Shown piece by piece: positions 30,703 through 64,000 of a DNA stretch of 64,000 bases. Within the stretch, counting starts at the first letter, position 1. The number at the start of each line of letters is the position of its first letter. The DNA is from Plasmodiophora brassicae (lineage: Eukaryota). The translations under genes were made by a program, and so were the position numbers. The notes below the pieces were generated by a model. It was not told the DNA's origin. It was given only the letters and a program-made list of their open reading frames with translations, and searched no databases. The stretch spans positions 186,001 through 250,000 of the forward strand of contig CP145416.1 of NCBI GenBank assembly GCA_036867785.1. The letters run 5' to 3'.

Positions 30703-32958
30703 TCAGAAGGCGCTGCGGCAGAGCGGGCAGGTGGCGCCCGTGGCCGACGAGGCGAACCACTTGTAGAGGCAGGCCGAGTGGAACCGGTGCTTGCAGACGC
30801 GGCAGGCGAGGCGCGGCACCTGGTCGGTGACGGCGTGGACGACGGCGTAGCAGATGGGGCAGTCGTCCAGGCCGGCGAAGTGCGCCTCGACGTTCCGGCG
30901 CCACTGCCGGACGGCGTCGCCCACCGACCCGTTGCGCGACGCCAGCACGGTCGCCACCGTCAGCGCCCAGCGCCGCACGCGGCCCGCGTCGACGCCGCGG
31001 TGGTCGCTCAGGTCGACGTCGGCGACGCGCAGCGGGTGCTCCGCCGCCAGACGGATCACCAGGCGCACGGCAACGTCGGCGTGCGGGCGCACGGTCGCCG
31101 CGATCTCGCCGGCGCGCGTGCACCGCACCACGAACCCGTCGCCGTCCTCCTGTGTCGTCGGCCCGGCACGGAGCGCGGCGACCTCGTCGGCGATCAGCGC
31201 GGGCGTGAACCGCCGCGCCGTCACGCGGCGGTACGCGTCGGCGGCGGCCCGGTCGCTGCAGGCGCTCCACCAGGCGCGCGCCACGACCGGCATCGCCTGC
31301 AGCGCCCGGTAGTAGCAGGCGGTGGCCAGGCCCGCGTACAGGCGCCGGCGCACGTGCCGGTGCCGGTGCACGTGCCGGCCAGGCAGGGCCGCGTTCGCCC
31401 CGACGTCGACGACGACGTCGGCCGCTGCGGGCCTCGGCGCCGACGACAGGATCTGCACCATGCATTCGTCGAGGAAGGCGGGTGCCGCGTCGCGCACCGC
31501 CGTCAGCAGGAGCAGCGAGCGGCGGCGCGCCCCGACCTGGTCCAGGACGGCGAGCCAGACCAGCAGGTAGCAGCGGACGTCGTCGTCGTGGTTGACGTCC
31601 GGGCGGCGCGTCAGGACGTCAACGAGTGCCGCCGGGATGAGGTTGTTGCTGTCGCGGGGCTCGTCGTCGTCGTCGGCGGCAACGGCGGCGGCCAGGCCCC
31701 CGATCGTGGCGGAGAAGACGGCGTGGGCAAGCCGGGCGATGGCGTCACCGGCGTCGTCGTCGTCGTCGACGGGCGCGTCGCCGCCGTGGCGCAGCAGGGC
31801 GACCAGGTTGTCGAGGAGCAGGGCGAGGCGGTCGGCGGGCAGCGACGTCGCGAACGGGTACGCGGTCAGGACGCCGGCCAGGCGGTCGACGGTGCCGGGC
31901 GCCAGGCGACGCAGGGCACCCGGCGCCAGCAGCGGCAGGCACAGGTCCAGGGCCGGGCGCACCAGCGGATCATCGTCGTCGACGACGTTGGGGCGGCGCA
32001 CGACGACGACCAGGCCGCCCAGCAGGTCCAGGGCGGCGTCGGTGCGCTCGTCGTCGTCGTCGTGGTCGGCGTCGTCGAGCGCATCGACGACCCAGGCGAG
32101 GGCGTCGGCGCGCTCCTCGCTGGACGGGGCCGGCGGCCAGACGGCGACGGCGGCGGCCGCCAGGCGCAGGCCCGCCGTCGTCGTCGTCGACGCCAGGCGC
32201 GCCGCCACCCGCCAGACGGCGTCGCGCGCCACCACGTCGCCCAGGTCGGGCAGGGCGCGCGCCAGGCACAGCGCCGACCGGTGATCGCTGTCGTCGTCGT
32301 CGTCGCCCTCGCTGTCGGCCAGCCAGCGCCGGGCGGCCTCGGCCAGTGGCGCGCCGGGCGTCACGAGGCGCATCGCGGGCACCAGCGCCGGCGTCGTCGC
32401 CGGCAGACGTGCCAGCAGGGACGCGCGCGCCGCCGACGACGACGACCGGGCCAGAGCGTCGGCCAACTGCTCCACGTCGTCGTCGCCGGCCGCCGCCGCC
32501 CACAGCCGGTCGACAACGTCGCGCGTCACCAGCGAGTCGTTGTCGTCGACGAGGCGGGCGGCGATGAGGCGGCGGGCGCGATGCCCGATGACCCGGAGGC
32601 GGGCCTCGAGCGCCCAGAGCGACGGGGCCAGCGCCCAGAGCAGCGGCATCATCCTGGGCGCCGCCCCCAGCAGGTCCAGGGCGTCGAGGCAGGCGTCGCG
32701 CGCCCCGACGGCCAGGTCGCGGCGCGCGATCGCGTCCAGGTCGGCGCCGGTCGGGAAGCAGGCCCGCGTCGTCGGCCAGGGCACGGCGCTGGCGACGACG
32801 TGCGCCCAGAACACGGGGTCGAACGACGACGACGCCGACGCCCCCAGCAGAGCGACCCGGCGCAGGTCGCCCGCCACGACGTCCAGCACGCGGGCGGGCA
32901 TCGACACGCCCCGGGCCCGCTGCGCCAGCGCGACGACGTGCGGCGCGGCAACGTCGCC

Positions 32959-32993
<35 letters not shown>

Positions 32994-35106
32994 GCTGGAC
33001 GACGTCGGCCAGGAATTGCAGCCAGAAGACGGACACGAGGACGTCGTCGTCGTCGTCCGGGGGGCGCTGCGGCGGGAGGAGGACGTCGAGGGCGACGGTG
33101 ACGCGCGCACAGGCCCGATCGGCGGCGTCGGGGTCGTCGGCGAACCGGGCGGGGAAGGCGAGGGCGCGGACGGACCCGGCCAGGTCGGCGACCAGGGCGG
33201 CCAGGCGGGCGCGGGCCGGGTCGCCCAGGCGCGCGAAGCACGCCGCGAACGACGGCAGGCGCGCCGCCGGCAGATCGTCGGCGACGAACGCGTCGAACAG
33301 CGCCTCGGTCAGGGCGACGCGCCCATCGTCGTCGTCCAGGCGGGCGTGCGCGGCAACGGCCAGCAGGGCGGCGACGTTCGCGCTGCGGCGGACGACGCCG
33401 ACCAGGTCGGAGGTGGGCGTCCGCGTCGTCCGGCAGACGACGCGGACGAGCGCGTCGGGCAGGTCGGCGTCCTGCAGGGCGCGGCGGAACTCGCCCTCGA
33501 CCTGGTCGCGCAGGTCGTCGTCGACGATGCTGTCGTCGACGAGCGCACCATCGCACAGGGCGATCGCGTCGCGATGCCCGCGGCGGTACGCGTCGAACGC
33601 GGCCCGGACGACGGCCCGGGTCGTGCGCGGCAGGGCGGCGCCGGCGACCAGGTCGGACAGGGCGCGCACGACGACGGCGCTCGGCGGCGGCGTCGTCTCG
33701 TCGAGGTGACGCGCGCAGACGCCCGCCAGGCGGTCGTCGAGGTCGGCCCGGTCGTGGAACAGGGCGCCCAGGCGCGCGAACGTCACCCGGGGCAGGACGT
33801 GATGGTGGGCGCCTGCCGACGACGACAGGCGCGCCAGCGCGTCCGACGTGCAGTCGAGCAGGTGGTGGGATGACGACGCGGACGGCACCTGGTGGAGGAC
33901 GTCGGCGTACGCGTCGAACAGGGCGGCGGCGGCGGCGGCGTCATTGGTGCCGGCGGCCAGGACGGGCGCGCCGGCCCACAGAGCGGAGAGGAGACGGGTG
34001 CGCGCGTCGTCGTCGTCGGCGAGGTGGGCGGCCAGCGCCGGGCACGCCCGGTACATGGCCGGGCTGTCGGCGGCGGCCGGCTGCGCCAGGCGATGCAGGA
34101 CGCGGTCGACGACGCCGGGCGACGTCAGGCGCGCCGGGTCCCGTTGCACCAGGGCGAGCAGCGCGGGCCACATGGCGCGCCGGGCGCCCGCGTCGGCCTC
34201 GTCGAGGAGCGCGTCGACGCGAACGGCCGCCGCCGGGTGCACGACCAGCAGGTCGTAGATCGCGCGACGGAGCGCCGGTCGGCCGCACCGGGCGAACCTG
34301 TCGACCAGCGCCCGACACAGGTCCGCCAGGTCGTCGTCGGCGTCGGCGGCGTCGTCGTCGGCGACGAACGAGGCGGCGGCGGCGATGACGCCCGCCATGA
34401 CGCGGTCGTAGCGGTCGTCGAGGTCGTCGCGCGTGTCGTGCGGGTCGCCGAGGCGGGCGGGCGACGACGCCGCCGTCTCGATCAGGGCGGTGGCGAACGC
34501 GACGAAATGCGGGCGCAGGAATCGGCGGGCGGCGGCGACCCGGTCGGGCGTCGGGAACGCGGCGGCGAACGACGCGGCGGCGGCCTGGGCGACGGACGCG
34601 ACCGGGTCGTGGATCGCGACCAGCCAGGGCCCGGCCAGCGTCGGCAGGGACGGGGCGATGTCCTTGCCGACGTTGGCGATCAGGGCGCGCAGGGCCTCGT
34701 GCTGGGCCAGGCGGACCATGCGCGAGTTGTCGAGCGTGAGGCGCGCGAACCGGCCGGCCCAGTCGGCGAGGAGCGCGCCGCGAAGGTCGCCGGGGGCGCG
34801 CGTCGCGAACAGGTCGCGCAGGTCGCCCAGCGCCTTGACCCGCGTGATCGGGTCACGCTTCGACAGCAGGCGGGCGCACCGCGCGTACTCGCCGTCGTCC
34901 GCGTAGATGGGCGCGGCGGCGAAGATGGACGTCGGCGGCGCCGCCGTGCGGAACGCGGCCAGGCCGGTCGCCGCCGGGACGTCGCCGGCGGCCCGGGCGC
35001 TGCTGGCCCCGGTCAACTTGGCCATGCGGTTGCCCGCGTTGCGCTTCCTGGACTCCTTGACGGCCGCCGAGCGCTTGCCGCCGCCAGTACTGCCGGCGCG
35101 CTTCAT
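30703..35106 (-). CDS. LTN1: Listerin E3 ubiquitin ligase (ribosome quality control), intronless
   Basis: N-terminal ASSARAA and LSKRDPITRVKAL. C-terminal RING FAGLDDCPICYAVVH...CRVCKHRFHSACLYKWF...CPLCR. ATG at 35106. Confidence 0.9.
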
Positions 35107-35490
35107 GATGGACGCCGCCGCGGGATCGCGCGAACTGCAGTCGGGCCGCGGGCCGCGCGCCCACTCCGCCGCCCGCCACTGCGGCGTGACATGGCGTGAC
35201 GGGTGCCTCGGCGCGGTCCTCCGCCTAGCGGGCGGAGTCGGCGCTGCCTCCGCCTGTGCTCGCCAATACGACCCAGCATGGGTGCGGTACCCATGTCGGC
35301 GAAGATATACGGGCGCGGCCCATTCGAGAACGTGCACCCCCCGGCGCGTCAGCGGTTCTGGAACGTGCGTCGCAACGTGGTCTGCAGTCCCGCGGTTCTG
35401 TGACGAACCTTCGCAGGGGGTGGAGGAGATGCCGGAAATACTACGTACCTTGTCTCCGACGGTGTAGGTAGTACACAGCGCGCGCCGACG

Positions 35491-36600
35491 ATGGCGCAGG
35501 GGACGGCCACGCCGGCCGTTGTCGTCGTGCCGGCGGATTTGGGGGCCGGCGACCCGGTGCCGGACGACCTGGCCGACCAGCTTCGCGCCGTGGCCACCGC
35601 CCTGGTCGACGAATGGAGGGCGCGTCCGCCGGCGGCGTTGCGGGCGACGTGCGTCGAGGGCGGCATCACGAACAAGCTGTTCCGACTGCAGGACGCGTCG
35701 TCGCCGGCGGGCACGTGCGTTGTCGTCCGCGTCAACGGCCTTGAGACGGAGCGGGTCGTCGCGCGGGATCGCGAACGCGACGCCAGCGCCCTGCTGCCCG
35801 CGTACGGGTTCGGCAAGCGCGTCTACGGCGAGTTCGGCAACGGGCGCGTCGAGGAATGGCTGTCGGGCCGCGCCCTGCAATGCCAGGAGCTCGCCCGCGA
35901 CGACGTCATGGCGGATGTCGCGCGCCGCATGGCCGCCCTGCACCGCGTCCAGATCCGGTCGCCGCGGTTCGACCCGCACCGGGCGACGATCTGGGACACC
36001 GTCGACCGGTACATGGACGAGGCCGACCGCGACACGTTCGACGATGCCACCCTCGGTCGCCTCGATCGGGTCGCCTGGCGCAACGCCGGCCAGCGCCTGC
36101 GGCACCTGCTGACCCAGACGTCGCCGGTCGTCCTGGCGCACAACGACCTGCTGGCCGGCAACATCATCCTGGACGAGTCGCCGGGCGCCCGGCACCGCAT
36201 CCAGTTCATCGACTTTGAGTACGCCGCCTACAACAGCAGGGCGTTCGACATCGCCAACCACTGGTGCGAGTTCGCCGGGTTCGACTGCGACTGGGGCAAG
36301 TTCCCGGGCCCCGCCCAGCAGGCGCGCTTCGCCCGGTACTACCTGGGCGACGGCGCCACCGACGACGACGTCCGGGCGCTGGTCGACGAGGTGCGCCCGT
36401 GGCCGCTCGTCAGCCACCTGGTGTGGGCCTTCTGGGGCATCGTCCAGGCGCGCGTCTCCGCCATTGACTTTGACTTCATCGGGTACGCCCGGCAGCGGTT
36501 CCAGGGGTTCCACCACTACCTGCGGACGGCGGTGCCGCACCTGGCCCCTGCGCTGCTCGACGACGTCGACGGCGACGGCCTGGCACAGCCCGCCTTGTAG
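35491..36600 (+). CDS. Ethanolamine/choline kinase
   Basis: GGITNKL, Brenner motif HNDLLAGNI and IDFEYAAYNSRAFDIANHWCEFAG. Confidence 0.92.
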   Translation: MAQGTATPAVVVVPADLGAGDPVPDDLADQLRAVATALVDEWRARPPAALRATCVEGGITNKLFRLQDASSPAGTCVVVRVNGLETERVVARDRERDASALLPAYGFGKRVYGEFGNGRVEEWLSGRALQCQELARDDVMADVARRMAALHRVQIRSPRFDPHRATIWDTVDRYMDEADRDTFDDATLGRLDRVAWRNAGQRLRHLLTQTSPVVLAHNDLLAGNIILDESPGARHRIQFIDFEYAAYNSRAFDIANHWCEFAGFDCDWGKFPGPAQQARFARYYLGDGATDDDVRALVDEVRPWPLVSHLVWAFWGIVQARVSAIDFDFIGYARQRFQGFHHYLRTAVPHLAPALLDDVDGDGLAQPAL

Positions 36601-36808
36601 CGCAGCCGGTAGGCACACACACACACACGCCATCTCCATAAATCTGCCGTCTTCTCGCAGGCGTAACCGGGCAACGCGCGCCCGGGTGGAACATTCGCCA
36701 GTACATGCGCTGCAGAGCCAGCTGTATATTTGGTTTCGCGGGCGGCGAACGACGGACGTGTCGGCGCCGCCGCGTTTAGAATTTGGCCACCATTGCTGGT
36801 GTCGCGCC

Positions 36809-37770
36809 ATGTCGTCGCCGGCATGCGCCACCACCGCATCGCTGCTCCTGGTCCTGGTCGCCGTCTGCGCGCCGTTGACGTCGTCGGCCGGCGCGCTGGT
36901 CGTCAGCGGGCGGCCGTCCCGCGGATTGCTGGACGGCGCGGTCCGCCTGCTGTCGTCGGTGCTGGCGACGCAGTCCTGCGCGACGCCGGCCCAGTCTGCC
37001 GGCTGCGTCATTGGCAGTACGGGCGGCGGCGATGACGGCGATCTGGTGGCCGCCTACGGGCGGAACCTGCAGCGGCCTGAATGCGCGATCAGCATGCTGG
37101 ACCTCGGTGTGGAGCCAGTCGTCGCCAGCGATGGGTACACTTACCGTCTGTCGCCGCTCATGACCTGGTAGGCGCTGTTGTTGCCCTCCCGGTTGCGTCT
37201 GTCGGGTCATGTGTGTGCGTGACCTGCTCAGGTGTGCCAGATTCGACTATGGCTCGTGTACGTCGCCGTTGACGCGCGAGACCATCCGTCCCGAGGTCTA
37301 CTATAATCAGGACCTGGAGGTGGTCATGAACACATGGGGCGACCAGGTGCGGCGGAAGCGCCATGGCACCACCATGTCCTGGGTGCAGCGGTTCTGCGCC
37401 GACACGGTCGTGATCTGCCCTGACGGTCGGTCGTATACGGAGGAGGAGGCCCACAAATTCAAACTGAGATGGTGCTATCTGAACCGGGCCCTCAAGAAGG
37501 TGGCCATGGAGGTGGCTGCCCTCGACGTCCTCAGCGTGCAGCAACAGCAGGACCTGGAACCCGTTGCCGAAAGGTACTGGGCGGGTGCCGCCCCTGTTAC
37601 ACGATGGGGCGCGCGCCGCATGCTGACGACGTCGCGATGTGTCCTGCAGAATGGCGCGACGGTCGTCGGTGCACCTGCCGGCGCCGACCGGATGCCGATC
37701 CTGGAACGACGTTTACGTACACCGAGAAACCCACGAGCGTGACGCGTTCCTGGACTACCTGATACCGTGA
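36809..37770 (+). CDS. Signal peptide + U-box domain protein, copy 1 (3 exons)
   Basis: SLLLVLVAVCAPLTSSAG leader. U-box CAISMLDLGVEPVVASDGYTYRLSPLMTW|C...TSPLTRETIRPEVYYNQDL spans intron 37168-37231. Confidence 0.75.
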
Positions 37771-50721: not shown

Positions 50722-52899
50722 TACGAATGGCGGTGCATCCATGCATGGCACACCGATATATAACCGCTTCGTCCCCCGGGTTGACACGATACAGTCGGGT
50801 GCGATGTCTATTGAGGAACGTTGTACGGCAAGTTGGCACAGGGACGGGTGGGCACCCGGTGGTGCCAGGTCGCGAGTCGCAGCAGGTCGGTCGACTGGGC
50901 TGACTCACAGCCCAGTCTCGACCCAGTGAGCACTCCAGTGACTTATGACGATCGACGGGGCACTACGACGTACGGCCGCTAGTATTAGGCAGTACGACTA
51001 GGGGGTAGGCGCCCGGCACGTCAGTCGACGTAGGCGTCCGGTTGGGCCCAGATCACGGCGGCGGGCTCGCCATTCACCACATCCACACGTCGGCCGAAGC
51101 ACACACCCGCCTGCCGATGAAGGTCGTTGACGGCGTCAAATCCAGGGCGCCCCCGCTGGCCGTTGTCGTCGCCACTATCGCCAGGCAGCACCGGCGCCGT
51201 CGCCGCCAGCCGCAGATCATCCACATGGCAACGATCGCCGACCCTGGCCCAATGCGATATGGCGCCACAGCAGCAGCAGTCTGGGCCAGCAGCCGGAGCA
51301 GGCGACCGTATCCCCACCCGGCCTGGGCGCGCGCCAATATTGCTGCCCGAACAACATGGACGTCGTGTGTCCCTGTTGACCACGATGACTGGGCGACGAC
51401 CGTATCCGAGACGAACCAGACCGCGACGTCGATATCGCTGGCAAGCACGCGCGCTGCCGCTGACCAGCTCACCGGTCTCACTACGATTACCGGTCGACAC
51501 GGCCGTATGGCCACCGCAGACGACAACGATACGGTCAGCGTGGGGACGGGCGAGTGCAGTGCGGCGTACAGCGTCGTCGGCGATTCGGACGACGACGTCA
51601 GGAGCGGCGCGGCCACCATCGACAGTCGGCGACGATAACATGCAGGATCACGTGGGCTGCCCGAGGGCGTCGTTTAGGCGCGCGAGCACCCTACCTGATA
51701 CGCTGGCCGAGCCGCCCAGATCACGTGGACCTGCCGCGCGCCTGATCATCGCTACTAAACACAATAGTCAGCAGCACGTACAGCAGGCCGCGGCCGGCAG
51801 GTGATCGGGGAGGTCAGCTGGGTTTGTATGGGAGAATCGATCAGCGCTTTGTCCTGCAGTGCACGGGCATACATATGCAAGACGTATCTCTAGTATGGTG
51901 TATGTATACGATCTCCATCGGTATCAGCAGGGGGGCCGGGCCCCGTCTGGCTGTACGTCGTCGTGTTGTGCGTGGCGCCGCGCGATGGGGCGACCGCGCG
52001 CGCGCCCCGCACCATTCAGGGTGCCGCCTGCACACGGCATCGCGTCGTCGCTGCTGGTTCGTCATGTCGCTCGTGTGGCGCTTCGCCCGCCGGTTCCTAT
52101 CGGTCGTCCATGTTGCTGATGCGCCGGTACTGCCCCGACCTGCCGCCAGCACGGCGCCATCGATGCGCGCGCACCTGACCACGACGTCGACCGGTGCGGA
52201 CGGCGATGGACAACAGAAGCCGCACCTCAACAAGAAGGGCAAGCTGTAAGACGGTGCATGCGCTCGAACGCATGTCGTCTGTATACTGATGAACTGGATG
52301 GGACTGGGTAGGGCGAAAAAGAAGCACCGTAAGAAGCAGGGCAAGCAGGTATCCCTGCGGTACCGCGGTTAAACGAACAGGACCTGTTGTTCGCTTCAAT
52401 CCAACTCATTTGGTTATCGGCGATCGTCCAATGCCTGCTACTGGTGACCCATATGGCTATACTGCGGAAGTACCGTTTGTAACACTGTCCCATTTTAGTA
52501 CTTGCTGTGCTTGCAACTGTCTTGTACTGGCTTGAGACGTAGGACGCTAGGTGAAGTGGAACACACGAACGCTACGGCGATGCAGAGAGCGTGCGTGGGA
52601 CGTGATGTATCGAAGTTCGGAACACGAGTGATCCTGGGGTGGGGTCGCGAGACCACATGGCAGTGCATGACATCGGGTTTTAGGCATGTACCCACACCCG
52701 TACCCGGCCGCCGCGAGGACAACCCCACCCGCACCCGTACCCGACCGGTCGGATGTAAAACATCATACCCACACCCGATCCGACCCGCGGCAGGGAATTA
52801 CCAGCCCATACCCGATGCACACGGCCCGACGATCCAGTTTCGTGGCCACACCCGGCCGGCCGATCAAAGTTAGATGCTTTATTTGAGATCCCTGTTAGA

Positions 52900-54245
52900 T
52901 GTGGTGACCAACCGTCGAATGAGGCACAAACGTGTGTACGTGAAAGTGTAATGAGAATCGTGGGCAGCGGGGGCAGCTGCCAGGACAGTAGGTCACAGGG
53001 CGTGCGACGTCATGACGTGACCAGGTCACGTGTACAGGTCCGATATCACTCCCCTCCAGACGGCGGAGACGGCGATGAAGAGGAGGACCTGAGATCGGAG
53101 GATGAAGCCAATGGGCCTGGGCGTGTGTCTTTGCTGGATCGGGTGACTTGAGCTGTGGCGTTGCGCGTGCACCAGTACTATATATACTGGATGGGGGCCG
53201 TGGAGATAAAGTTGGACGCGGGTTCCCAGGAATTGTGAGAAGCGTCGTAACCGCGCCGCTGAACGAGGTAACGGCGCGCGTGCTGAGGTCCCTTGTAATC
53301 CAAGATCCGGTCGACGAGGCACGTGTCTGGATCGAGTTCCGGTGGGATGGATGCCAGTTTGAGGTAGGACGGTGGAGGATTACGGGGAAAGGCCTGACTG
53401 TTGGAGCCAAGCAGTACATACGTTCCGCCGCGGGTGCGACGAAGTACATTAAAGGGGCCGACGTAGTACGGCTCGATCTTGGTGGAGCGCGTGTGGTCTC
53501 GGACCATGATCATAGATCCTACGGGAAACGTATCACTCTTGAGAATACGGTGACGCCGGGCGAACGCCGCGATGGCTGCCGATGCGTGCGACGCGTGACG
53601 GTCGCGTATTGCCGGGAAAATGACCTCTTGCGCCCACTGAACGCTCCGGCGAACGTCGCTGTAGGAGATGTCAGCCACCGGCATATCCATGAAATCGCCG
53701 AACAGGTTGCATGGTCGCGTGTGCATGATCGTGAACGGTTGGGACGCATGCTTGTCCGCGACCTTAAGGTTGAAGAACAGTTGCGCGGCCGGCACGTAAC
53801 GGTCCCAGTTCGCGTCCTCGGCGTTCAGCAGCTTCTTCCCTGTGACCTACTGTCCTGGCAGCTGCCCCCGCTGCCCACGATTCTCATTACACTTTGTGTA
53901 GCCTCACGTACACACGTTTGTGCCTCATTCGACGGTTGGTCACCACATTTTTACGTGAAGACCCTGAGTACCACCACGGAAGAGGACCCGGTCCAAGATC
54001 CTGCTCCCGGGGTGGCGCCGCCGATGGTGCAGGGTCTTGGACCGGCCGGGTCCTCTTCCATGGCGGTACTCAGGGTCTTCACGTAAAACATGTAGTGACC
54101 AACCGTCGAATGAGGCACAAACGTGTGTACGTGAGGCTACACAAAGTGTAATGAGAATCGTGGGCAGCGGGGGCAGCTGCCAGGACAGTAGGTCACAGGG
54201 CGTGCGACGTCACGTGACCAGGTCACGTGTACTGCAGGTCCGACA
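52900..54245 (-). mobile_element. Non-autonomous Ty3/Gypsy chromovirus derivative (LTRs 52900-53045 and 54091-54245, TSD TTAGA)
   Basis: ~150-bp direct LTRs with TG...CA-type ends. TTAGA on both flanks. PPT GGAGGGGAG next to the 3' LTR. Integrase tail (YVGPFNV) and chromodomain (VDRILD...RYLV..GY...NSWEPASN). Confidence 0.88.
53838..54200. repeat. Long inverted repeat (arms ~53838-54004 and ~54029-54200, 24-nt loop)
   Basis: The LTR part plus leader ttttacgtgaagaccctgagtacc...ggtccaaga.cctgc is present in both orientations. Confidence 0.9.
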
Positions 54246-56709
54246 TTAGAGCGCAGGCACATGAGCATGTTCTGTGTCGCTGGCTTCAGTCCGTTGCGCT
54301 TGGTGGTGGCCGTGTTGCAAGCATCAGAAAATTTGTTCTCGGACTTGGAGCTCGCCGCCGGAATGGCGAGAACCGATCGAACTGCGAGCGCGATGATGGG
54401 CCAAGTTGACGCCTTGGCCTTCCACCAGCCAAGTAGCGTCCCTGACTTGTGATTTCCCGACTTGAACATCGCCTTGTCTTCCTTGGTCACGCAATACGAG
54501 GCATTGGGCGAGTAGCTCCAAGTTGACCCATATTTTCAAAGCGGCTAGAGCCACCGCCTCGCTGTCAGCCGCGCCATCTGTCGATACCGCATGGCCCTGT
54601 CATACCTCCGAGGCCAAATTTTATGACGTCATGACGTCATAAAGGCGTCATAAGGCGTCATAGGCGTCATAAGGCGTCATAACCACGAAACATATATGGC
54701 AAAAGGTAGTACATCAATCATTCGTCATCTTGCTCACTGTCCGAATCTGGTAGAGCAACATCTGCATCTGTTTCGACAGCGTTCCAGTCTTGAAGTGGCG
54801 CAGAAGATGGGTCTGCAGCCAGTAGAGACTGCAACTCCATGATCAATTCGACCTGCAACAGATGGCCTTCAGAGAACATAGAACGCGCTCCCGACATGGA
54901 TTGGAGAAGCCTGCTGAAAGCTGAATCTCTGGGCGGAAGGTCCTTCTCGTGCCGTAGTTGCACGTTATTGTAGACACAGGCAACCTGCTTGTCGGCCTTT
55001 ACGGGATTGAAGTTGTTCCGTTCTTGACTTTCAATGCGCGCCATAACTTTGAAGTTCCGCTCTCCTCCATTGGATGACGCCACGAGAGTGAACACGGGAA
55101 TGGCGATCAATTTGGCAAGATCGCGCCAAAATGCCTGGAATAAACCCCAAGCGACCTTGGGATGCATAACAGCATTCGCCCGAACCAGCGAGTTCTCCAT
55201 GCCGGTCACAAGAAAGTCGGAGTACTGGTTGACTAAGCGTTGCCAGGTTCCATCGCCGTCTTCCACACCCAAGTTCTTCATCCGCAAATTATGCAGCCAT
55301 TGCATGGCCAGGATGCTTTCAGCCTGAACGTGTTCGCCTCCAAGTTGTGTAATACCATCCGCCCGCAGGGAAATGAACAAGGGATCCAGCATGAAAGCTA
55401 GGTACAGAACCGGATGGCGGATACGGAGCCAGCGACGATCGAGGCATGCGATCAGGCGTTCCAATTCTGACCGATCGAAATGCAGGACGGAACGAAACCC
55501 GGAGAGCGACGGGTCCGTTGAGTAGTCCAGGAGAACTTTCTTGATAAACAAGAACGAAGCGACTGTCGAGGAGCATGGAACGACATCCCCTTCGAGGTGC
55601 CGACTCACGTACACCAACTGGCGGGTAATGTAGGTCGTACGTAGCCTTGATGGAATACCAGAAACGCCGACTGGTGACGACAGCTTTCAGTCGGGGTGGC
55701 AGGTCACAATCGAATGACGAATCTTTCAGCCCATACGACGCATACTCGACAAAAACGTCCTGTAAGCTGCTGCAGGTTGAGAGGAGTTTGTCAATGAAGC
55801 CAAACCAGGTGTAGCTTAAGCTTGGCGGGTGAACGACTTTCTTGAGATGGGTTTGCATGCATGTCGCGAGGAACGCCATCGGCCGATGCGACTGCCGAAA
55901 GAACGAATGTAGCTCAGAAACATCACAAATCAATCCTAGAGAGAACGCAAATTCAGCAACTAACGACCGCACCAAAGGCCGACAGTGCTTCCCTACCTTT
56001 GACAACCGGATTCTTGGCAAAATCTTTACAGAAGTTGTGAATCGAGTGAACTGGGTCACCGTAAGACACGACATCAGGATCTCGACTCCTGCCAGCCCTC
56101 ATCACGTTCGTCGAATCCGAAAGTATCCCCATAGCCAAGGGACGCGTCGGTTGGCACTTCGAAATTCCGCGGACAGGACCTGACGTGCCTCTGTGGTTCA
56201 TACGTTAGCAGAAGCGAAATACAACAGATGTTGTTCTTACTGCAGAACATGCCGTACACATAGTCAGCGTCGGCCTTTTCGGTATCCTTGTTGTGCCGAC
56301 TGAAATAATACGGGCGAGACACGCTACCATCATATTGTGCAGCGATTGATGTTTCGAGTTGGACCAGCCATCCGTTGTGAGAGCGACTGCTTCCGATTGC
56401 GTAATTATACGCATGGTACGACACATGACGTCCTCATATAACAATGGCAAGTGCACGTTCGACACGTACTCGGCAGTGGGTGGTTGATAATTGATCGGCA
56501 AGAGTTCGAACGCGGCCTTGAACTCAGGACTTTCGAGAATATCGAATCCTTTGCCCTTCAATATCACCGCAGAGCAAAGTGCAAACTCAAAGGCCTCGCG
56601 ACGGGCCCGATCCCAAGGCATCTTGGCTACGTAGTCGGTCATTCGTGTTTGGGAAGTTGCTGTGGGCGACGGCAACGATTCCTGCGAATTAAGGACAGTA
56701 CTGGTAGAT

Positions 56710-59700
56710 TGAGAAGGACAATAATGAAGTGGATGTATTACGTACGGCGTGTGCGGCGGACGTTACAGTGGCGACGTAGTCGCCGACGGTGTAACGGTTG
56801 CCAACGCCGGCGGGCACGGAGTCGCGGAGTTCGTGACGGCGTTCACGTGCTGCAGGCATGTGCTGCTGGTCGTAGTGGATACGTTGTTCGACACGCCCCC
56901 TCCAGCAGCACACGGCCTGGGACTTGTGTCGATGATGCCGGCCAGGAGCAGGTTCGCATGATACGAGGTGCTGAGAGCGGGCTTCGTGAGGTAGTCTGCA
57001 GCCATCTCGGCGGACGGGCACTTGTGGACCACGATCAAACTGGCCTCGACGGCCTCCCGGGTGTAGTGAAACTGCACCTCGATGTCCTTCGTGCGATCAT
57101 CCATCCGACGATAGCCAGACCAGGCCTTCGCGCCTTGATTGTCCTCGTATACGATCGTCGGACTGGAGCGTGCGAAGCCGATTTCGGTCAGGAATGACCG
57201 GATCCAGGCCAGCTGGCGGGTAACAGCACACAGCGACTTGATCTCTGCATGTGTGGACGATAAGCTAACTTTGACTGCGCCCAGGTCTTGGCGACGTGAC
57301 TGCCAGTGCACGGGGCCGCCAGCCAGCAGGATGATGTGGCCGGAGCGCGACCGTCGCGTGTCAGGGTCGGATGCCCAATCAGCGTCGGCGTATGCGATCA
57401 GACGATCTTCGGGCTGGCGTTCGTATCGGATGCCGTGCGTCATGGTGCCGGCGAGGTACTTAAGAACGCGTTGCCCCGCACGCCAATGCTGGATGCCGGG
57501 ATTCGAGGAGAATTGGGCCAGTACATTCGTTATGTACGCGATGTCGGGACGGCATCGATGGGCGAGCCATGTCAGGCAGCCAATAAGTTTGAGGTACGGC
57601 TTGGTCGCCATTTCGTCACGGTCGAGGTCGCTTTGTGGACTCATTGTCGTTGATAGGTGAACGCCAGGCTGGTGCGGCGTGTCGACCGGATGACAATGCG
57701 ACATGTTGAAGTCGCTCAACACCTTCTCGATGTACTCGGCTTGGTCAAGGGTGATGGCGCCGGTGCCAGGTTCGCGTCGGATGCGCATGCCAAGCAGGGT
57801 CGACGGTTCACCTTGATCGGTGATCTCGGCCATCGTGGAGAGCTTCTCGAGAACGGATTCCGCGAACGGGACGTCATTGTACGCCAGCAGACCGTCGTCG
57901 GTGTGCACCGACATGATCATGAACTTTCCATCGCGATCGTACCGGAAGACGCAGGGGTCCGCGATGATCGATTCGAATCCGAGTGATAACAGCATCTCCC
58001 GAAGCGTCTTGTACCAACGTTCGGCGCCTTGTTTCGTTCCATAAAGGGCCTTTTGCAGTTGACGAACTCGGTACGGGACGTGATGATCGGTGAAGCCATC
58101 CGGCTGACGAATGTAAACATCATGGAGCATGTCGGCGTTCAGGTATGCGGCCACCCAGTCGACCTGGCGAAGATGCAGGCCGTGCTGCGCCGCGAGCGCT
58201 AGGATAACGAGGAACGCAGTGGCACGGGCGGTCGGCGCGAACGTATCGTCGAAGTCGATGCCGGGGCGTTGTCGGAAGCCCTGAGCACAGAGTCGGGCGG
58301 TGAACTTGCGGATGCCACCGTTGCCACTGAGCGAGGACTTCACTCGGAACACCCACTTGGCGCCAACAGCGATCTTACTTTTCGGCAGGTCGATTAGCGG
58401 GCCGAACGTGTCCTTGGCGTCCAGTGTTGCCATCTGGGTGACGGCGGCGTCCCACCAGTGGCCAGCGAAAGGTGATGAGAGGGCATCGGCCATTGAGTTG
58501 GGTACGGGAATGTCGGTCGCTTTCAGCTTCGACAGGTCGGGTCGTGGTAGACGGGCTGGGTCGATCGGGGCGGATACCTTGGCTCGACATGCCTTGGCAG
58601 CTGCGCCGCGACATGTCGGACGGTTGGACCTGATGGCCTGATCGATCAGACGGCGCTCCTCAACCTGCTGCCAATGCCGGATCAGTCGGCGGGAGCGACG
58701 AGGAGGGCGCTGTGTCGGGAACGTTAGGGTCGGATTCTGGAACCAGGCGTCGACCGTCGAGGACCACCGTGTCGACGAACGATTGGCCGCCTCCGGCGCC
58801 TTCCACCATTCACCAGGCGGTTGACGACGACGATTCGATCGGCGAGGGCGTGGCACGTCGATGACATTGTGGTCAACGATATCAGCAGCATCGGAATTGT
58901 CGTGGACGTCGGGGTCGGCAGCTTCGTTGGGAGAGTCGTTGCTGGACGCCGAACCTTCGTAGTCGGGATCATCTTCAGCGTCATCATCATCTTCGTCGGT
59001 GGATACGTCATCAGGAGACGGTGAGCGCGACGGTCGGACGATCTCGGAAGGCGATGACGCAGCGGCAGGTGACGGAGGCTCGGGAGGGGATGCTGCGAGA
59101 GAGGATGCTGACGTCGATGGTAGAGGTGCCATGACGGCGTCGGAAGAGACGGGCGTCGGGACGATCGTGTCAACGTTCGGCGCAGAGCTCGACTCGGGAC
59201 TGGACGGTGGCGCTGATGATGAACTAGCAGGGCTGGATCTTCCAAAGCCGAATGTGAACGAGGTCTCCAGGAACTCGGCAGTCGTGCTCTCGAACGTGTC
59301 TTCCCGGTCCACGTCGTAGAACCGCCAAGCCTTCATGCCGGGCGTGAAACCGATAAACACAGCGCGAACACGACGAGGCTCCAACTTGCTCGGCTTCTTC
59401 GTGGCTGGATGCGGTCGCATGGCATAGGCATCGCAACCGTAGACACGAAGGGCCGAGATGTTAGGTAGGGCGCGACGAGCAGCCTCGAACGATGTGCGAC
59501 GCCCGGGAAGGACTGATCTGGGGTGGATGTTGTACAGTATCGCAGAGTAGGACAGCGACCAGGGCCACGTGGAGTCAGGCATGCGAGAGTGGCACCGGAT
59601 TGAGCTTTCGATACCGCAGAGCGTGTGGTTGACGCTTTCAGCGCGGCCGTTCTGCTCGGGCGTGTACGGGACAGATTTGCGGTGCAGGATGCCGGACTCG

Positions 59701-61945
59701 TTGTAGAACAGGACGCACGCCTTGGAGTTGTACTCGCCGCCACCGTCGGTCTGGAACGTCCGGATACCACGTCCTTCCTGGTTGCGAAGACGCGCGTCAT
59801 AGTGCTTGATGACGTCGAGCGCCTCCGATTTGCGACGTAGCAGATAGACGGACAGGTACCGAGAGGAATCGTCCAGCATGGTCTGGTAGTACTCAAAGCC
59901 GCCGACACCGACGACAGGCCACCGTCCGGACAGATCGCTATGGACGAGATCGCCAACACGACGCGCGCGCGACGTACTGGGAGGGAATGATGACCGTTTG
60001 CCCTTGGCGAGTAAACATGCAGCGCATGGACATCGATCTTGCGGCCTCGGGATTGGCCCGTCGAACTTCATGCCACGACAACGTTTGTGCAGGATGCGCA
60101 GGTTGCCGTAACCCAGGTGGCCGGTTCGAGCGTGCCAGACAGCTGGAGCTGCGGCGGTGACCTTAGCGACGCGGCATGAGACGCTGGATGCGATCAAGGA
60201 GCAGACTCGGGCAGAGTGAAGTGTGCCGGGCGCGGAGGTTGGAGCGGATAATGGAACCCGGTACAGGTTATCGTGTCCTCGTTGACTGACGGCCACTGGC
60301 TGACCGACGGGCGCCGTCCAGTTGGCCCCCGAGTAGATCTTCGCGGTATCGCCGTCGAACACGATCTTGTGACCTGATCTGGTGAGCTGGCCAACTGATA
60401 CTAGCGCTTGGCCAAGTCGGGGAACGTGCAGCGAATCGATACTCGTCGCCTGGACATCCATGCCGAATGACGTCACGCCTCGACCGGAAGTGGTCGTACG
60501 CGACAGATCGGCTAGCTCAACTTCCGGTCCGGTGCCTTGGCGATAGCAGCTGAGATGTCGGCGCAGGGGCGTCATCGTCGTGGAACACGCTGAGTCCAGT
60601 AGGCCTACTGAGTTCGCGTACACGTCGATGGCGTGGCGTGCCGACAAAGCACGCATCGGCTCGGGCGCCGGATCGATCGGATGAGCGCCAGACGTTGGAT
60701 ACTCGTTGGACGTTGGTGAGGATGTATTGCTTTTCGCGTTGCTGTCGCGGTACCAGATGTGTCGTTGCAGCGTGCATTCGCCGTTAGTGTGCTTGGATCC
60801 GGGATGGAAGACGCAGGACTCGTTGCGTCGTGGTCCACGGGGACGCGTCGATGTGGCGCAACTGGAGCGGTTGGCCGTTTGGAACGCGTCGTGTCGGTCC
60901 CGCACGTCTTGGACCCTGATCTCCTCGCTTGTCAACGACCCGACGACCTCGGAGACACTGGGCAGCGTGTCCAGAGCACGATTGTGCAGGCCAGCGACGA
61001 CGGCGTCGAGATCGGATGATGCGTTGGCCAAGATGAGGACGGCGACCAATGCGTCGGTGAGGGACAGCATCTCGGTCGGTACCGTCGACCGGACGCGATG
61101 AGCCGCTGCTTGAACTCGGGCGGCGTACGTGGCGACCGACTCGCCGGGCATGTGCTGGACCGTGACGAGGTCGCGGACGGCGCGCACGACCGATGCCAGC
61201 GACGACGGGCTGTACGCCTGGAACAGCACGCGCCAGCACTTGGCAGCCGAGCCTGCCTGAAACAAAGACAATGCGGACGCGATCTTGTGGTCCAGCATGT
61301 GGACGAGTAGAATCTCGCGCGCGGCTGCCTCGAGAGCTGGGTCGTGTGCCGTACCGGTTGTCGCAGTCGGCGAGCCATCTTCGTTGATCCCGATGACGTC
61401 CGCGTACCCACGATTGCGAAACCAGAGTGCAGCTGTCTGAACCCAGGACGTGAACGAGTCGGGAGTACCGTCGAACTTGGGCATGGGCAGTCGGCCTGCG
61501 TCGCTTCGGCTGTGCGCCTCGGCGATGATCGGCATGGCCGGGGTCGATGGACAGCTGGTCGGACGCGCCAGCTGCTGCTGCAGGACACGGAGACGGTCGA
61601 TCTTCTCCTGCCTGGCGATCGTTGCCTCCGCTTCGGCAATTCGGGTGTCGATCTCCTCGAGCGACAGATGACGCAGCGGGTCGTCATCCGTGTTAGGCGT
61701 CGCCTGGCGCTCGGCCATGGCGAGTAGAGGCTCAGCGCCTGCGCCTATACGACTGTTAATCTGAGAAGGACAATAATGAAGTGGATGTATTACGTACGGC
61801 GTGTGCGGCGGACGTTACAGTGGCGACGTAGTCGCCGACGGTGTAACGGTTGCCAACGCCGGCGGGCACGGAGTCGCGGAGTTCGTGACGGCGTTCACGT
61901 GCTGCAGGCATGTGCTGCTGGTCGTAGTGGATACGTTGTTCGACA
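56710..61945 (-). mobile_element. Full-length Ty1/Copia LTR retrotransposon (LTRs 56710-56893 and 61762-61945, TSD TAGAT)
   Basis: 184-bp LTRs that appear identical, TG...CA ends, 5-bp TSD, PPT GGAGGGGG and an uninterrupted gag-pol. Confidence 0.95.
56763..61718 (-). CDS. Copia gag-pol polyprotein (gag-PR-IN-RT-RNaseH), 1651 aa
   Basis: LLDSAC (PR), WHARTGH..CAAC, VHSDL/TDGGGEY/PEQNGRAE (IN), ARLCAQGF/KALYGTKQ/HTDD (RT) and YADADWA (RH). IN lies before RT. Confidence 0.95.
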   Translation of the reverse strand: MAERQATPNTDDDPLRHLSLEEIDTRIAEAEATIARQEKIDRLRVLQQQLARPTSCPSTPAMPIIAEAHSRSDAGRLPMPKFDGTPDSFTSWVQTAALWFRNRGYADVIGINEDGSPTATTGTAHDPALEAAAREILLVHMLDHKIASALSLFQAGSAAKCWRVLFQAYSPSSLASVVRAVRDLVTVQHMPGESVATYAARVQAAAHRVRSTVPTEMLSLTDALVAVLILANASSDLDAVVAGLHNRALDTLPSVSEVVGSLTSEEIRVQDVRDRHDAFQTANRSSCATSTRPRGPRRNESCVFHPGSKHTNGECTLQRHIWYRDSNAKSNTSSPTSNEYPTSGAHPIDPAPEPMRALSARHAIDVYANSVGLLDSACSTTMTPLRRHLSCYRQGTGPEVELADLSRTTTSGRGVTSFGMDVQATSIDSLHVPRLGQALVSVGQLTRSGHKIVFDGDTAKIYSGANWTAPVGQPVAVSQRGHDNLYRVPLSAPTSAPGTLHSARVCSLIASSVSCRVAKVTAAAPAVWHARTGHLGYGNLRILHKRCRGMKFDGPIPRPQDRCPCAACLLAKGKRSSFPPSTSRARRVGDLVHSDLSGRWPVVGVGGFEYYQTMLDDSSRYLSVYLLRRKSEALDVIKHYDARLRNQEGRGIRTFQTDGGGEYNSKACVLFYNESGILHRKSVPYTPEQNGRAESVNHTLCGIESSIRCHSRMPDSTWPWSLSYSAILYNIHPRSVLPGRRTSFEAARRALPNISALRVYGCDAYAMRPHPATKKPSKLEPRRVRAVFIGFTPGMKAWRFYDVDREDTFESTTAEFLETSFTFGFGRSSPASSSSAPPSSPESSSAPNVDTIVPTPVSSDAVMAPLPSTSASSLAASPPEPPSPAAASSPSEIVRPSRSPSPDDVSTDEDDDDAEDDPDYEGSASSNDSPNEAADPDVHDNSDAADIVDHNVIDVPRPRRSNRRRQPPGEWWKAPEAANRSSTRWSSTVDAWFQNPTLTFPTQRPPRRSRRLIRHWQQVEERRLIDQAIRSNRPTCRGAAAKACRAKVSAPIDPARLPRPDLSKLKATDIPVPNSMADALSSPFAGHWWDAAVTQMATLDAKDTFGPLIDLPKSKIAVGAKWVFRVKSSLSGNGGIRKFTARLCAQGFRQRPGIDFDDTFAPTARATAFLVILALAAQHGLHLRQVDWVAAYLNADMLHDVYIRQPDGFTDHHVPYRVRQLQKALYGTKQGAERWYKTLREMLLSLGFESIIADPCVFRYDRDGKFMIMSVHTDDGLLAYNDVPFAESVLEKLSTMAEITDQGEPSTLLGMRIRREPGTGAITLDQAEYIEKVLSDFNMSHCHPVDTPHQPGVHLSTTMSPQSDLDRDEMATKPYLKLIGCLTWLAHRCRPDIAYITNVLAQFSSNPGIQHWRAGQRVLKYLAGTMTHGIRYERQPEDRLIAYADADWASDPDTRRSRSGHIILLAGGPVHWQSRRQDLGAVKVSLSSTHAEIKSLCAVTRQLAWIRSFLTEIGFARSSPTIVYEDNQGAKAWSGYRRMDDRTKDIEVQFHYTREAVEASLIVVHKCPSAEMAADYLTKPALSTSYHANLLLAGIIDTSPRPCAAGGGVSNNVSTTTSSTCLQHVNAVTNSATPCPPALATVTPSATTSPL

Positions 61946-62755
61946 TAGATGAAGCGGGAGACGCCAGTTGACGCTCGGGAACAGCCGAGCGCGATAGAAA
62001 CCCATTTCCGGGTAGAAACCGGTCGTTCAGAGTGGAACACACGTTCAAGTGCGACCTCATTCGGGTTGTCGTCGCGGTAACATCACAACCGCAGTGGTTG
62101 CACACACAACGACGCTCGCCGCCGTCGGCTCCTTCATCGTCTCTGGGCTGATACGGGGCTGCGAAGTGCTGTCTTAGAGCCGCAATATCGATAGCTCGCG
62201 GTCGCTCTGGTGCGCTTCGCCGGCCTTGGCATCTCGTGCTCACGTACGGCAGACACAGTGAGACTGTGAAACTGACGAAGTAACCGTGGTGACGTGGTCC
62301 GTTCGGACTAGAGTACGGGCGTTTCGCGGATTTTCGGAGGCCGCGCACCACTGGGTATGACGCCTTATGACGGAGGCCCTCAGGGATGACGTCATATGAC
62401 GTCATATATTATGACAGGGCCGTGCGATACTGCCTATGTCTTCGTCGTCCCCTGCCGGGCGGCTCCGTGCGCCGTGCGCCGTGCGCATAAAAAAAAGTCC
62501 GCACTGCGCACTTTGGCGCCCGCGGACTGCAGTCTGCGATTTATTGCGTCTTCAGCACTAAATGAAACTCCTACGGTGATTTTGCGACGCACTCGAATTG
62601 CGACGCAGCGGCTGACCCAGCCGTCTATCGCAGCGGTAGCCGTTTGACGACAACTCTTCACAGGTCGTCGACCGATTATCCGATCCGATGCCCCGAAGGC
62701 CGAAACCCGATCCGCCGTGGACGTTTCGGTCGCAGCATTTGCTAATTGCCAGTCA

Positions 62756-63934
62756 TGTCAGCGCCCATGGGCACGCCGGAGGATGTCACCTTCCCGATGG
62801 AGTTCAGGATAACTGTTCGGGACTTCATGGGCAACAAGGCGGCTCCTGTTATCGAGTCAAGCTGGAAGGTTCGTGTCCGTAACTACCGTGACCTGGTGGC
62901 ACAGGTCTGGGAAAAAGTTAGTGGGTGGATCCAAGGCGAAGCCGTATTTGACGGGGACGGCAACGACGACCGCGTCCGTCGATGACCTTGAGAAGTACGT
63001 CTTGTTAGGCGACGAGAAGCAGAAGAGAACATTCCATATGTCGCATCTCACCGAGCAAAAGACGCTAAACAGTGCGCGAGACCGCGTCTGGCATCTGTAT
63101 GTGCACAGATATTCTATGTCGGTCAGTTCCGCCGAGCTGTATCGGCGACTGAAGCACCGGCTTCTAGAAGCCGAGCAAGATCGCTCGGGGGCGGCAACTA
63201 CCGCGGTAGTGGCGGCGCGGGCGCGGACGCTACAGCAGCTCCACCCTGATTTCAAGGTGTTCGAGGTCAATTGGTTCCAATGGAAGCCTTCCAAAAGTGA
63301 CTTACACGGCATTTTAGATTAGATCTAGTTGGCCTCGGAGAAAGAATGTAAATGCGGAATGTAGTGGGAAGGCGAAGTCGGACTGCGCACAGACAAATGT
63401 AAGATTGTAAGAATCTGCGTCTGGTATCTAAGAAGACCGTTTCGCGGTCTCCGCAGATCTAAGACGGATCTTAGAACAGATCTAATTCGCTCAGATTGCG
63501 GATCTTAGGCGACGCAGATTCGTGATCTAAGGTATTTTTGGAAGGCATCCAATGGACAATGTGGATTGAAAGTCTTCCACTTCATGTTCGCTATGACAAA
63601 TCTCGCCAGCCTCCACCCCCACACACAGGCAGCATATCGGCTACAGCGGGGCTACAATTCTGCGGAGGAGCTACAAATCGGCTACATTAGTGGACACATT
63701 GGTGACATTTTCTTCCGCCTGCCCAAGGAGTGCGCTGATGGGGGGGGATATTGCCGCTATTGTTCGAAATGCAAAATGCGCGATGGAAACAATAGCGCAG
63801 CGCTTCAGTTCGAACGAACCGTAGCCGATAGCTCCGCCCGGGTAGAGCGGGGCTCTATATTTGGCATCCCGTACATCAACGCGCTGCCGTCTCGCTTGAC
63901 GCTTGTCACGATCGGCAGTCCACCGGATCACTGA
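62756..63934 (+). pseudogene. Frameshifted, MITE-interrupted ORF, probably transposon-associated
   Basis: Frameshift near 62960. DRSGAA...LQQLH...WFQW|TMWIESL...PPPPH reads in frame once the 63285-63547 insertion and one TSD copy are removed. Confidence 0.5.
63285..63547. mobile_element. MITE, 263 bp
   Basis: TIR GCCTTCCAAAA/TTTTGGAAGGC. Flanking direct repeat TCCAATGGA (63276-63284 and 63548-63556). Internal GATCT(A/T)AG repeats. Confidence 0.8.
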
Positions 63935-64000
63935 GGCTGGCGCGGACCAAACGGACTGCGCGAGAACCGTAGCAGATTTTGCATTTTGGATGAAAACGAG

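Follow-up and report, generated by a model that had tools for sequence, protein, structure and literature searches.

Drosophila copia and yeast Ty5, which belong to the genus Hemivirus, are reportedly primed by initiator tRNA-Met through its anticodon stem-loop or 5' half, and yeast Ty4 is said to use tRNA-Asn as primer by its 3' end. Hemiviruses use just a short tRNA segment, according to the ICTV profile (PMC8515867). Half or internal tRNA sites for tRNAs other than iMet are described in two further papers (PMC6317226, PMC4139406), in the first of which tRNA-Asn is the primer for 2% of the plant elements analysed and primers are mostly used via the 3' end. The half or internal sites named in the literature searched, as far as its available text goes, are those for Met, Ile and Arg, and no description of a half tRNA-Asn or half tRNA-Lys site was found there.

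The minus strand of the window, by which we mean the whole 64-kb stretch of DNA analysed, carries a Ty1/copia element that looks intact by inspection of LTRs, target site duplication (TSD), polypurine tract and reading frame. Its features are the following:

61946..61950, minus strand: TSD ATCTA, upstream copy (reads TAGAT on the plus strand)
61762..61945, minus strand: 5' LTR, 184 bp, TGTCG...TCTCA, 184/184 identity with 56710-56893
61748..61761, minus strand: predicted primer-binding site GATTAACAGTCGTA, complementary to tRNA-Asn(GUU) positions 27-40
61730..61735, minus strand: CTGAGC (GCTCAG on the plus strand), possible second contact at the D-arm start, weak, proposed from its spacing
56763..61718, minus strand: gag-PR-IN-RT-RNaseH in a single frame, 1651 aa (P0001), from domain matches
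56894..56903, minus strand: polypurine tract GGAGGGGGCG, directly before the 3' LTR, from sequence
56710..56893, minus strand: 3' LTR, from comparison of the LTR pair
56705..56709, minus strand: TSD ATCTA, downstream copy (reads TAGAT on the plus strand)

The LTRs have TG...CA termini and are 100% identical, the TSD is 5 bp long and perfect in both copies, and together with the polypurine tract these characters agree with the Ty1/copia group (Pseudoviridae). The same assignment follows from the domain order of P0001, gag - protease - integrase - RT (RVT_2) - RNase H, with matches to Retrotran_gag_2 (residues 133-271), Pol_BBD (373-449), gag_pre-integrs (511-572), rve (590-687), SH3_retrovirus (752-822) and RVT_2 (1108-1349); the final 131 nt of the frame lie inside the 3' LTR. 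A protein search matched P0001 at 100% identity to an entry that bears the name Plasmodiophora brassicae, and the other relatives were copia-type. A P. brassicae paralogue with 57% identity (P0006) was also seen. The identical LTRs, the intact frame and the perfect TSD point to a very recent and successful transposition in the P. brassicae genome.

The plus strand reads GCTCAGCGCCTGCGCCTATACGACTGTTAATC at 61730-61761, and the element strand reads GATTAACAGTCGTA from 61761 to 61748. As the LTR bounds are fixed at 61762-61945 and 56710-56893, this 14-mer starts at the first base past the terminal CA of the LTR. The 43-nt leader that separates the LTR from the gag ATG (61718) was searched for TGG and has none, and no site for a tRNA 3' CCA end (TGG...) adjoins the 5' LTR, which confirms the first-pass annotation in placing a TGG-free site directly inside the 5' LTR. 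The complement of the site, (A)TACGA-CTGTTAA-TC, has the form of an anticodon arm, with C32, U33, the anticodon GTT, A37 and A38, followed by T39 and C40 that are able to pair with A31 and G30, and if 61747 is added the complementarity extends to tRNA-Asn position 26. The loop complement is CTGTTAA, with anticodon GTT, and not the CTCATAA of the classical initiator tRNA-Met primer. The 14-mer is found once in the window, where 0.16 chance matches with at most two mismatches are expected anywhere in 64 kb; a coincidence at the exact position adjoining the LTR is far rarer, and the motif also recurs in related elements.

The tRNA-side motif GATTAACAGTCGNAT was scanned in viral contigs, where it is present in at least 117 stretches, and ARAGORN was run on 80 of these loci (L079-L158). 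Of the 80 loci examined, 45 have it as the anticodon arm of a tRNA-Asn(gtt), none has it within another tRNA, and 35 have it outside a called tRNA; 11 of these 35 are cut or partial tRNA-Asn genes when read by eye. The claim that the complement is a tRNA-Asn(GTT) anticodon arm ending two bases past the loop is thus upheld. None of the matching genes is eukaryotic, all lying on contigs of phages and giant viruses, and against these viral tRNA-Asn genes the site is complementary to the anticodon stem-loop over 14-15 nt, ending about two bases past the loop. Position 28 is the most variable stem site among the sampled tRNA-Asn (T in 23, C in 13, A in 7 and G in 2 of the 45 genes) and is always paired with position 42, by 44 Watson-Crick pairs and one G:T pair. 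The seven genes with A at this position read ATACGA-CTGTTAA-TCGT and give a 15-nt match to the window.

Among 78 related copia loci from metagenomes, nine have together 10 half-tRNA-iMet sites of the form GGTTATG[AG]G[CT]C, preceded by ..CA in seven cases, ..GA in two and ..TA in one. The site in the window has an identical register, with the loop and two stem bases adjoining the LTR, in line with the earlier comparison to the half-tRNA-iMet geometry of copia and Ty5. The locus whose RT/RNase H region groups with the window element (L001, 44% aa identity) has an LTR at 4048-4229, then TA, then GATTAACAGTCGAATG, then a gag frame. Its site differs from that of the window solely at tRNA position 28 (T vs A), which judged against the viral genes is tRNA-like variation, and the LTRs and leaders of the two elements are otherwise unalignable. 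The L001 site sits behind the downstream LTR. After the upstream LTR-like end (1-130) comes a truncated gag, with no such motif, and the layout suggests a chimera made in assembly, a copy with a deletion or two elements side by side. Among the related loci read, L001 is the only further element with an Asn-type site.

Two more relatives have GATTAAGAGTCCCA in this position, after ..CA in L002 and after ..TA in L051. Its complement TGGGA-CTCTTAA-TC corresponds to the arm of tRNA-Lys(CUU) in the same register as the window site. In 80 viral loci the Lys-type 14-mer is the arm of tRNA-Lys(ctt) in five and of no other tRNA, and the other 75 are not tRNAs; many of these loci come from one metagenome, and the motif is therefore much less tRNA-specific in that collection than the Asn-type. 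Moreover, three of the four bases at the one differing loop position give real anticodons, and the Asn or Lys reading alone is thus a weak test. The distance from the site to the nearest CA is 2 nt in L001 and 7 nt in L051, where the LTR ends are read from a single copy. Polypurine tracts matching that of the window element are found in all three relatives (L001, L002 and L051). In a quick RT tree of 53 rows the Asn-type and Lys-type sites each occupy one of two sister subclades (SH-aLRT support 100 and 88, and 98 for the clade joining them), and no element of the clade, consisting of the window element, L001, P0004, P0005, L002 and L051, has a TGGTATCA site. The tree, with its long branches and unresolved forks, does not place the clade with the four half-iMet rows. 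The sites of the next outgroup, L054 and L061, were read and could be assigned to no tRNA, and a search with alignment A3 gave no relatives in viral contigs or prokaryote genome contigs. The conservation of the motif that the first-pass annotation had asked for is accordingly seen within the clade, as an Asn-type site in L001 and Lys-type sites in L002 and L051, all in the same register.

From these sequence comparisons the window element most likely primes from a cut piece of tRNA-Asn, bound through its anticodon arm, and not from the whole tRNA, a reading to which we assign a probability of roughly 0.75. The 14-15 nt after the 5' LTR would constitute the minus-strand primer-binding site of a recently inserted and apparently intact Ty1/copia element, pairing with positions 26/27-40 of tRNA-Asn(GUU) and not with the CCA end. 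Pairing should involve the anticodon stem on its 5' side, all of the anticodon loop and, on the 3' side of the stem, two more bases. The 3'-OH at tRNA position 40 would serve as the start of reverse transcription, so that the primer should be a 5' half, made by a cut on the 3' side of the anticodon stem. We infer that the host's own tRNA-Asn has such an arm and is cleaved, and the identity of the cutter is likewise a matter of inference. Priming by a 5' half of tRNA-Asn, as originally suggested, is in this way partly supported, namely by the specificity in viral tRNA genes, the register and the conservation in the clade; the additional suggestion of a tie between mobility and tRNA cleavage is speculative. 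The GCTCAG at 61730-61735, located 12 nt inward of the site, had been taken to fall at D-arm spacing. The spacing is plausible, as 27 of the 45 viral tRNA-Asn genes contain GCTCAG with a gap to position 27 of 10-12 nt in 26 of them (exactly 12 nt in four), but the match is absent from the corresponding place in L001, L002 and L051 and thus present in one of four clade members, and a D-arm contact is only weakly suggested.

The site might instead have been built for the tRNA-Asn of another or earlier host and be imperfect with the present one, or the element might by now have turned to another tRNA whose loop is similar. The 31:39 pair varies among eukaryotic tRNA-Asn genes: it is G31-C39 in human and plant nuclear tRNA-Asn (GGCTGTTAACC) and of the A31-U39 type in yeast tRNA-Asn. 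An arm with G31-C39 mismatches the second base from the primer 3' end, and if the proposed pairing is correct the host tRNA-Asn must therefore be of the A31-U39 type. ARAGORN detected no tRNA genes in the 64-kb window or in the 78 related metagenome loci. The contigs of four runs containing the window (X3, X7, X8 and X9) were compared at 80% likeness with a tRNA cluster of a giant-virus MAG (L099:1-815), which includes a tRNA-Asn with the predicted arm. In these runs the Asn gene of the cluster was touched only by low-depth contigs (2-8x), one with plant-like flanks and another with an encoded CCA end, which are therefore read as host-plant and bacterial; the contigs at 125-168x, read as the organism's own depth, covered just another tRNA of the cluster, and the tRNA-Asn of the organism itself did not emerge from this comparison. 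A mismatch with the present host is nevertheless unlikely, given the signs of very recent and successful transposition in this genome.

It is also quite improbable that the motif is a conserved cis-element of the clade that serves in packaging, dimerisation, translation start or the like and resembles a tRNA by coincidence. GATTAA-N-AGTC is common to the window element, L001, L002 and L051, and a lineage-specific signal is therefore conceivable, but both variants match real tRNA arms with the stem bases included, they vary where tRNA stems vary, and they sit at the place, and in the register, that sister elements show for half-tRNA sites of the proven type. Furthermore, no other primer site is found in the leader.

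Canonical priming, with a whole tRNA bound by its 3' CCA end to a TGG further in, has very little probability and was rejected on the TGG-free leader. A TGG is present at the gag start codon, in TGGCCGAGCGCC, which overlaps the gag ATG, but this lies far from the LTR (44 nt) and is not conserved, L001 having TGGAAGGGC and L002 TGGCTACAAGC at its ATG. The canonical TGGTATCA[GA]A occurs in 30 related loci, mostly right behind the LTR end, and is absent from the window element. Self-priming, in which the transcript folds its own 5' end onto the site and is then cut, has been described for Tf1 and is a prediction for plant TAR elements (PMC7175516 and PMC6317226). For the window element it is the least probable reading and was rejected, since the most stable duplex of the LTR RNA with the 20 nt following the LTR (-12.3 kcal/mol) is no better than chance (mean of 500 shuffles -12.7, with 54% as low or lower) and the longest Watson-Crick complement between leader and LTR is 6 nt.

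If a tRNA-Asn half is the primer, the listed primer species, iMet-CAU, Ile-IAU and Arg-UCU together with the predicted Asn-GUU and Lys-CUU, all belong to the ANN class, and a possible though doubtful generalisation is that half-tRNA priming is open only to tRNAs reading ANN codons. A37 carries t6A in these tRNAs. The ANN-reading primers share U36-A37-A38 on the 3' side of the loop, and every such site therefore begins NN-TTA. Under such a rule the cutter at position 40, whether a nuclease of the host or, on the annealed duplex, the RNase H of the element, would read the loop, and the rhizarian/soil copia clade would switch primers within the class by one to three base changes, for example from Asn to Lys by GATTAACAGTCG to GATTAAGAGTCC. 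The Asn-type and Lys-type sister lineages might be a small natural series for studying primer switching and the cut-site rule. Anticodon-arm sites for Asn and Lys would widen the primer repertoire of half-tRNA priming and extend the mechanism to Rhizaria. Automatic annotators of LTR elements seek matches to tRNA 3' ends and so will report 'no PBS' for the family of the window element. As the element looks recently active in the genome of a crop pathogen, it is a candidate marker for recent transposition and for differences between isolates.

Like Tf1 and TAR, the window element is without a canonical site for a tRNA 3' end, but those elements need a transcript 5' end complementary to the site, which was tested here and not found. 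Ty4 and some plant elements share the tRNA species of the predicted primer, using the CCA end of the whole tRNA via a site initiated by TGG where the window element would use the anticodon arm. The tRNAs other than iMet with half or internal sites read ANN codons, like Asn and Lys(CUU), and the tRNA species and hosts differ. Copia, Ty5 and the window element are alike in being Ty1/copia elements that lack a TGG site, in having the site next to the LTR, and in a pairing, predicted for the window element, that takes in the stem's 5' strand, the loop and another two bases and so ends the primer at about nt 40. In contrast to copia and Ty5, the proposed tRNA is Asn(GUU) and not iMet, the host is a plasmodiophorid (Rhizaria), and the case is made here from sequence. 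Descriptions of half-tRNA priming exist already for iMet, Ile and Arg(UCU), and the window element would therefore represent a new primer identity for a known mechanism.

The Ty1/copia element lies between two 184-bp direct repeats that are identical at 184/184 positions, start with TGTCG and finish with TCTCA on the element strand, and are bordered at either end by a 5-bp duplication, ATCTA. Its features in the window are:

61762-61945, minus strand, 5' LTR
61761..61748, minus strand, putative primer-binding site GATTAACAGTCGTA, beginning at base 1 past the terminal CA of the LTR
61718..56763, minus strand, single open frame between the LTRs encoding the 1651-aa polyprotein P0001
directly 5' of the 3' LTR, minus strand, polypurine tract GGAGGGGGCG
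56710-56893, minus strand, 3' LTR

The Pfam domains of P0001 follow the order copia-type gag, Pol beta-barrel (protease region), gag-pre-integrase, integrase core, retroviral SH3-like and RVT_2, and the product is 100% identical to a public-source protein attributed to Plasmodiophora brassicae. The frame terminates 131 nt into the 3' LTR (window 56763-56893), and that of the related metagenome locus L001 likewise enters its LTR by about 70 nt (L001:4048-4117), so the short LTR encodes the C-terminal tail of pol. The identical LTRs, intact frame and perfect duplication point to a very recent insertion, and no second copy or solo LTR of the element was found in the 64-kb window. About half of the sampled words from window 54500-64000 are present in the runs of organisms B and C, against 0.78-0.90 in those of organism A, and the element or its flanks could be absent in the B and C runs, i.e. 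an insertion polymorphism.

Elsewhere in the window, a 312-aa frame is enclosed by two direct repeats, each about 150 bp long, which are 90% identical and 1.19 kb apart (52899-53043 and 54090-54243); this arrangement may have arisen by tandem duplication or be a small LTR-like element. A 400-bp direct repeat with 78% identity has its copies 2.5 kb apart (22101-22500 and 24626-25025). One long frame is an ordinary host gene and no mobile element:

30703-37011, minus strand, 2102-aa listerin-type frame with listerin (Ltn1) N-terminal, HEAT-repeat, UBC-like and RING domains

No TGG occurs in the 43 nt that separate the 5' LTR from the gag ATG, and a site for a tRNA CCA end is thus lacking. The complement of the site, TACGA-CTGTTAA-TC, is built like an anticodon arm: five stem bases are followed by a 7-base loop with U33, A37 and the anticodon GTT, and then by two bases able to pair back to the stem. 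Sequence and LTR boundaries thus agree with the first-pass annotation, which had described such a motif directly inside the 5' LTR in the absence of TGG.

When viral contigs were scanned for GATTAACAGTCGNAT, at least 117 stretches were obtained, and ARAGORN was run on 80 of these loci (L079-L158). The motif lies within the anticodon arm of a tRNA-Asn(gtt) in 45 of the 80, in no case within another tRNA, and in 35 outside any called tRNA, although 11 of the latter are tRNA-Asn genes, partial or cut at the locus end, when the flanks are read by eye. The base at position 28 differs between the 45 genes (T 23, C 13, A 7, G 2), being paired with position 42 in all; the seven with A read ATACGA-CTGTTAA-TCGT and match the window over 15 nt (61747-61761). 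These genes, which are of phage and giant virus and not of eukaryotic origin, show the motif to be a tRNA-Asn arm as a class, and the host's own tRNA-Asn may have such an arm. Neither the window nor the related loci fetched contain tRNA genes, and sequencing-run contigs matching a tRNA-Asn gene with the predicted arm were of low depth only, host-plant- and bacteria-like. A G31-C39 pair, as in the nuclear tRNA-Asn of humans and plants, would not fit the site, and the A31-U39 of yeast tRNA-Asn would.

An alignment of P0001 with three relatives, used as query, yielded 78 copia loci in metagenome contigs, all of which were scanned for motifs. The initiator-tRNA 3'-end site TGGTATCA[GA]A is found in 30 of them, mostly directly past the LTR end, and GGTTATG[AG]G[CT]C, the classical half-tRNA-iMet site of copia, adjoins the LTR end in nine (L003, L005, L017, L025, L030, L044, L045, L063 and L072; 10 sites, after ..CA in 7, ..GA in 2 and ..TA in 1), L030 and L045 having the copia half site given in the first-pass annotation letter for letter. 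Here the LTR is adjoined first by the complement of tRNA positions 40 and 39 and next by that of the loop. The site of the window's element is in exactly the same register, in support of the copia-type geometry proposed earlier.

That the motif should be kept among relatives also holds, with a tRNA-Asn-type site in L001 and tRNA-Lys-type sites in two further metagenome loci, L002 and L051. The sites and the LTR concerned are:

L001:4048-4229, LTR of 182 bp with CGAGGGGGCG directly before it
L002:203-216 and L051:2596-2609, Lys-type site GATTAAGAGTCCCA beside the LTR, its register matching that of the Asn-type site

The L001 polyprotein is 44% identical to P0001. Its LTR is followed by TA, GATTAACAGTCGAATG and a 200-aa open gag frame with 27% identity to P0001 gag residues 112-256 (pairwise E 4e-8), and the LTR-leader regions of the two elements can be aligned only at the motif and the last bases of the LTR. 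The complement of the L001 site, CATTCGA-CTGTTAA-TC, equals the commonest tRNA-Asn arm of the viral set over 16 nt and differs from the window at position 28, the variable one in the 45 viral genes. The L001 contig holds either a deleted copy or two neighbouring elements, or else is an assembly chimera, since the motif adjoins its downstream LTR and the upstream end leads to a truncated gag without the motif. That LTR-like end (L001:1-131) diverges from the downstream LTR after ...cttcctatt and passes directly, with no primer site between, into a gag frame that is short of about 290 N-terminal residues.

In a quick maximum-likelihood tree based on RT/RNase H (53 rows, SH-aLRT support only) the window's element groups with L001 and the relatives P0004 and P0005 (support 100), and L002 and L051 form their sister (joint clade 98). 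No element with a TGGTATCA site falls inside the joint clade in this tree, whose long branches keep it from placing the clade relative to the four half-iMet rows. L002 has a 277-bp LTR ending in CTAACA, then GATTAAGAGTCCCA and the gag ATG 6 nt on; in L051, GCAACA and a 7-nt gap precede the 14-mer, and a unit of about 45 bp (catatatacacttaggtgtacaattttcttca...) is repeated in tandem about six times between primer site and gag start (L051:2640-2925). The complement of GATTAAGAGTCCCA, TGGGA-CTCTTAA-TC, is a tRNA-Lys(CUU) anticodon arm: 5 of 80 viral loci with the 14-mer are tRNA-Lys(ctt) genes with this arm and none is another tRNA, the remaining 75, many from one metagenome, not being tRNAs. Across the 78 loci and the window, GATTAA.AGTC stands beside an LTR only in the window, L001, L002 and L051, the other matches being six near-identical copies within integrase coding sequence and a single one in L037.

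A cis-element with no tRNA role is an unlikely reading of the site and leaves the stem-base match and the tRNA-like variation unaccounted for. In the clade the place and register of the site are kept while the apparent tRNA identity switches between sister lineages, and an account without tRNA pairing is therefore hard to find. A canonical site further in was rejected, as the sole TGG lies across the start codon and is not kept in all of the four elements, and so was self-priming, the best site-LTR RNA duplex, at -12.3 kcal/mol, being no more stable than the shuffle mean of -12.7, with a longest complement of 6 nt.

The hexamer GCTCAG is present 12 nt further in, as the first-pass annotation had noted, and its reading as a D-arm contact is borne out in spacing (10-12 nt from the arm in 26 of 27 viral tRNA-Asn genes carrying GCTCAG) but not in conservation; being absent at the corresponding place in L001, L002 and L051 despite the fitting spacing, the match is probably due to chance. 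Cleavage of the tRNA, the nuclease responsible and any link to stress-induced tRNA halves are what we infer. Stress-induced halves are usually cut inside the loop and not at position 40. The element's own RNase H, acting on the annealed duplex, would be at least as likely a cutter; such a cut is described for Tf1 self-priming in PMC7175516.

The primer-binding site of the window's element is real, well formed and of the half-tRNA type, and the tRNA is most likely tRNA-Asn(GUU); the copia element that carries it has been active recently in its plasmodiophorid host. Copia and Ty5 are primed by half of tRNA-iMet, and Ty4 uses a tRNA-Asn primer. The half-tRNA mechanism is already known, Hemivirus being defined by use of a short tRNA segment in the ICTV profile (PMC8515867). 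According to Neumann et al. (PMC6317226), half-tRNA sites occur in about 2% of plant elements, with half tRNA-Met in Osser, Bryco and part of Gymco-II and half tRNA-Ile in Bianca, and tRNA-Asn primes 2%, in a list of mostly 3'-end primers. No half tRNA-Asn or half tRNA-Lys site was found in the literature searched, and the supplementary tables of PMC6317226 may list more types. Three things appear to be new, namely the tRNA that serves as primer, the switch between Asn and Lys inside a single clade, and the group of hosts. The half-tRNA primers reported or proposed to date (iMet, Ile, Arg-UCU, Asn and Lys-CUU) all read ANN codons and therefore have U36-A37-A38 in common, a pattern worth following.
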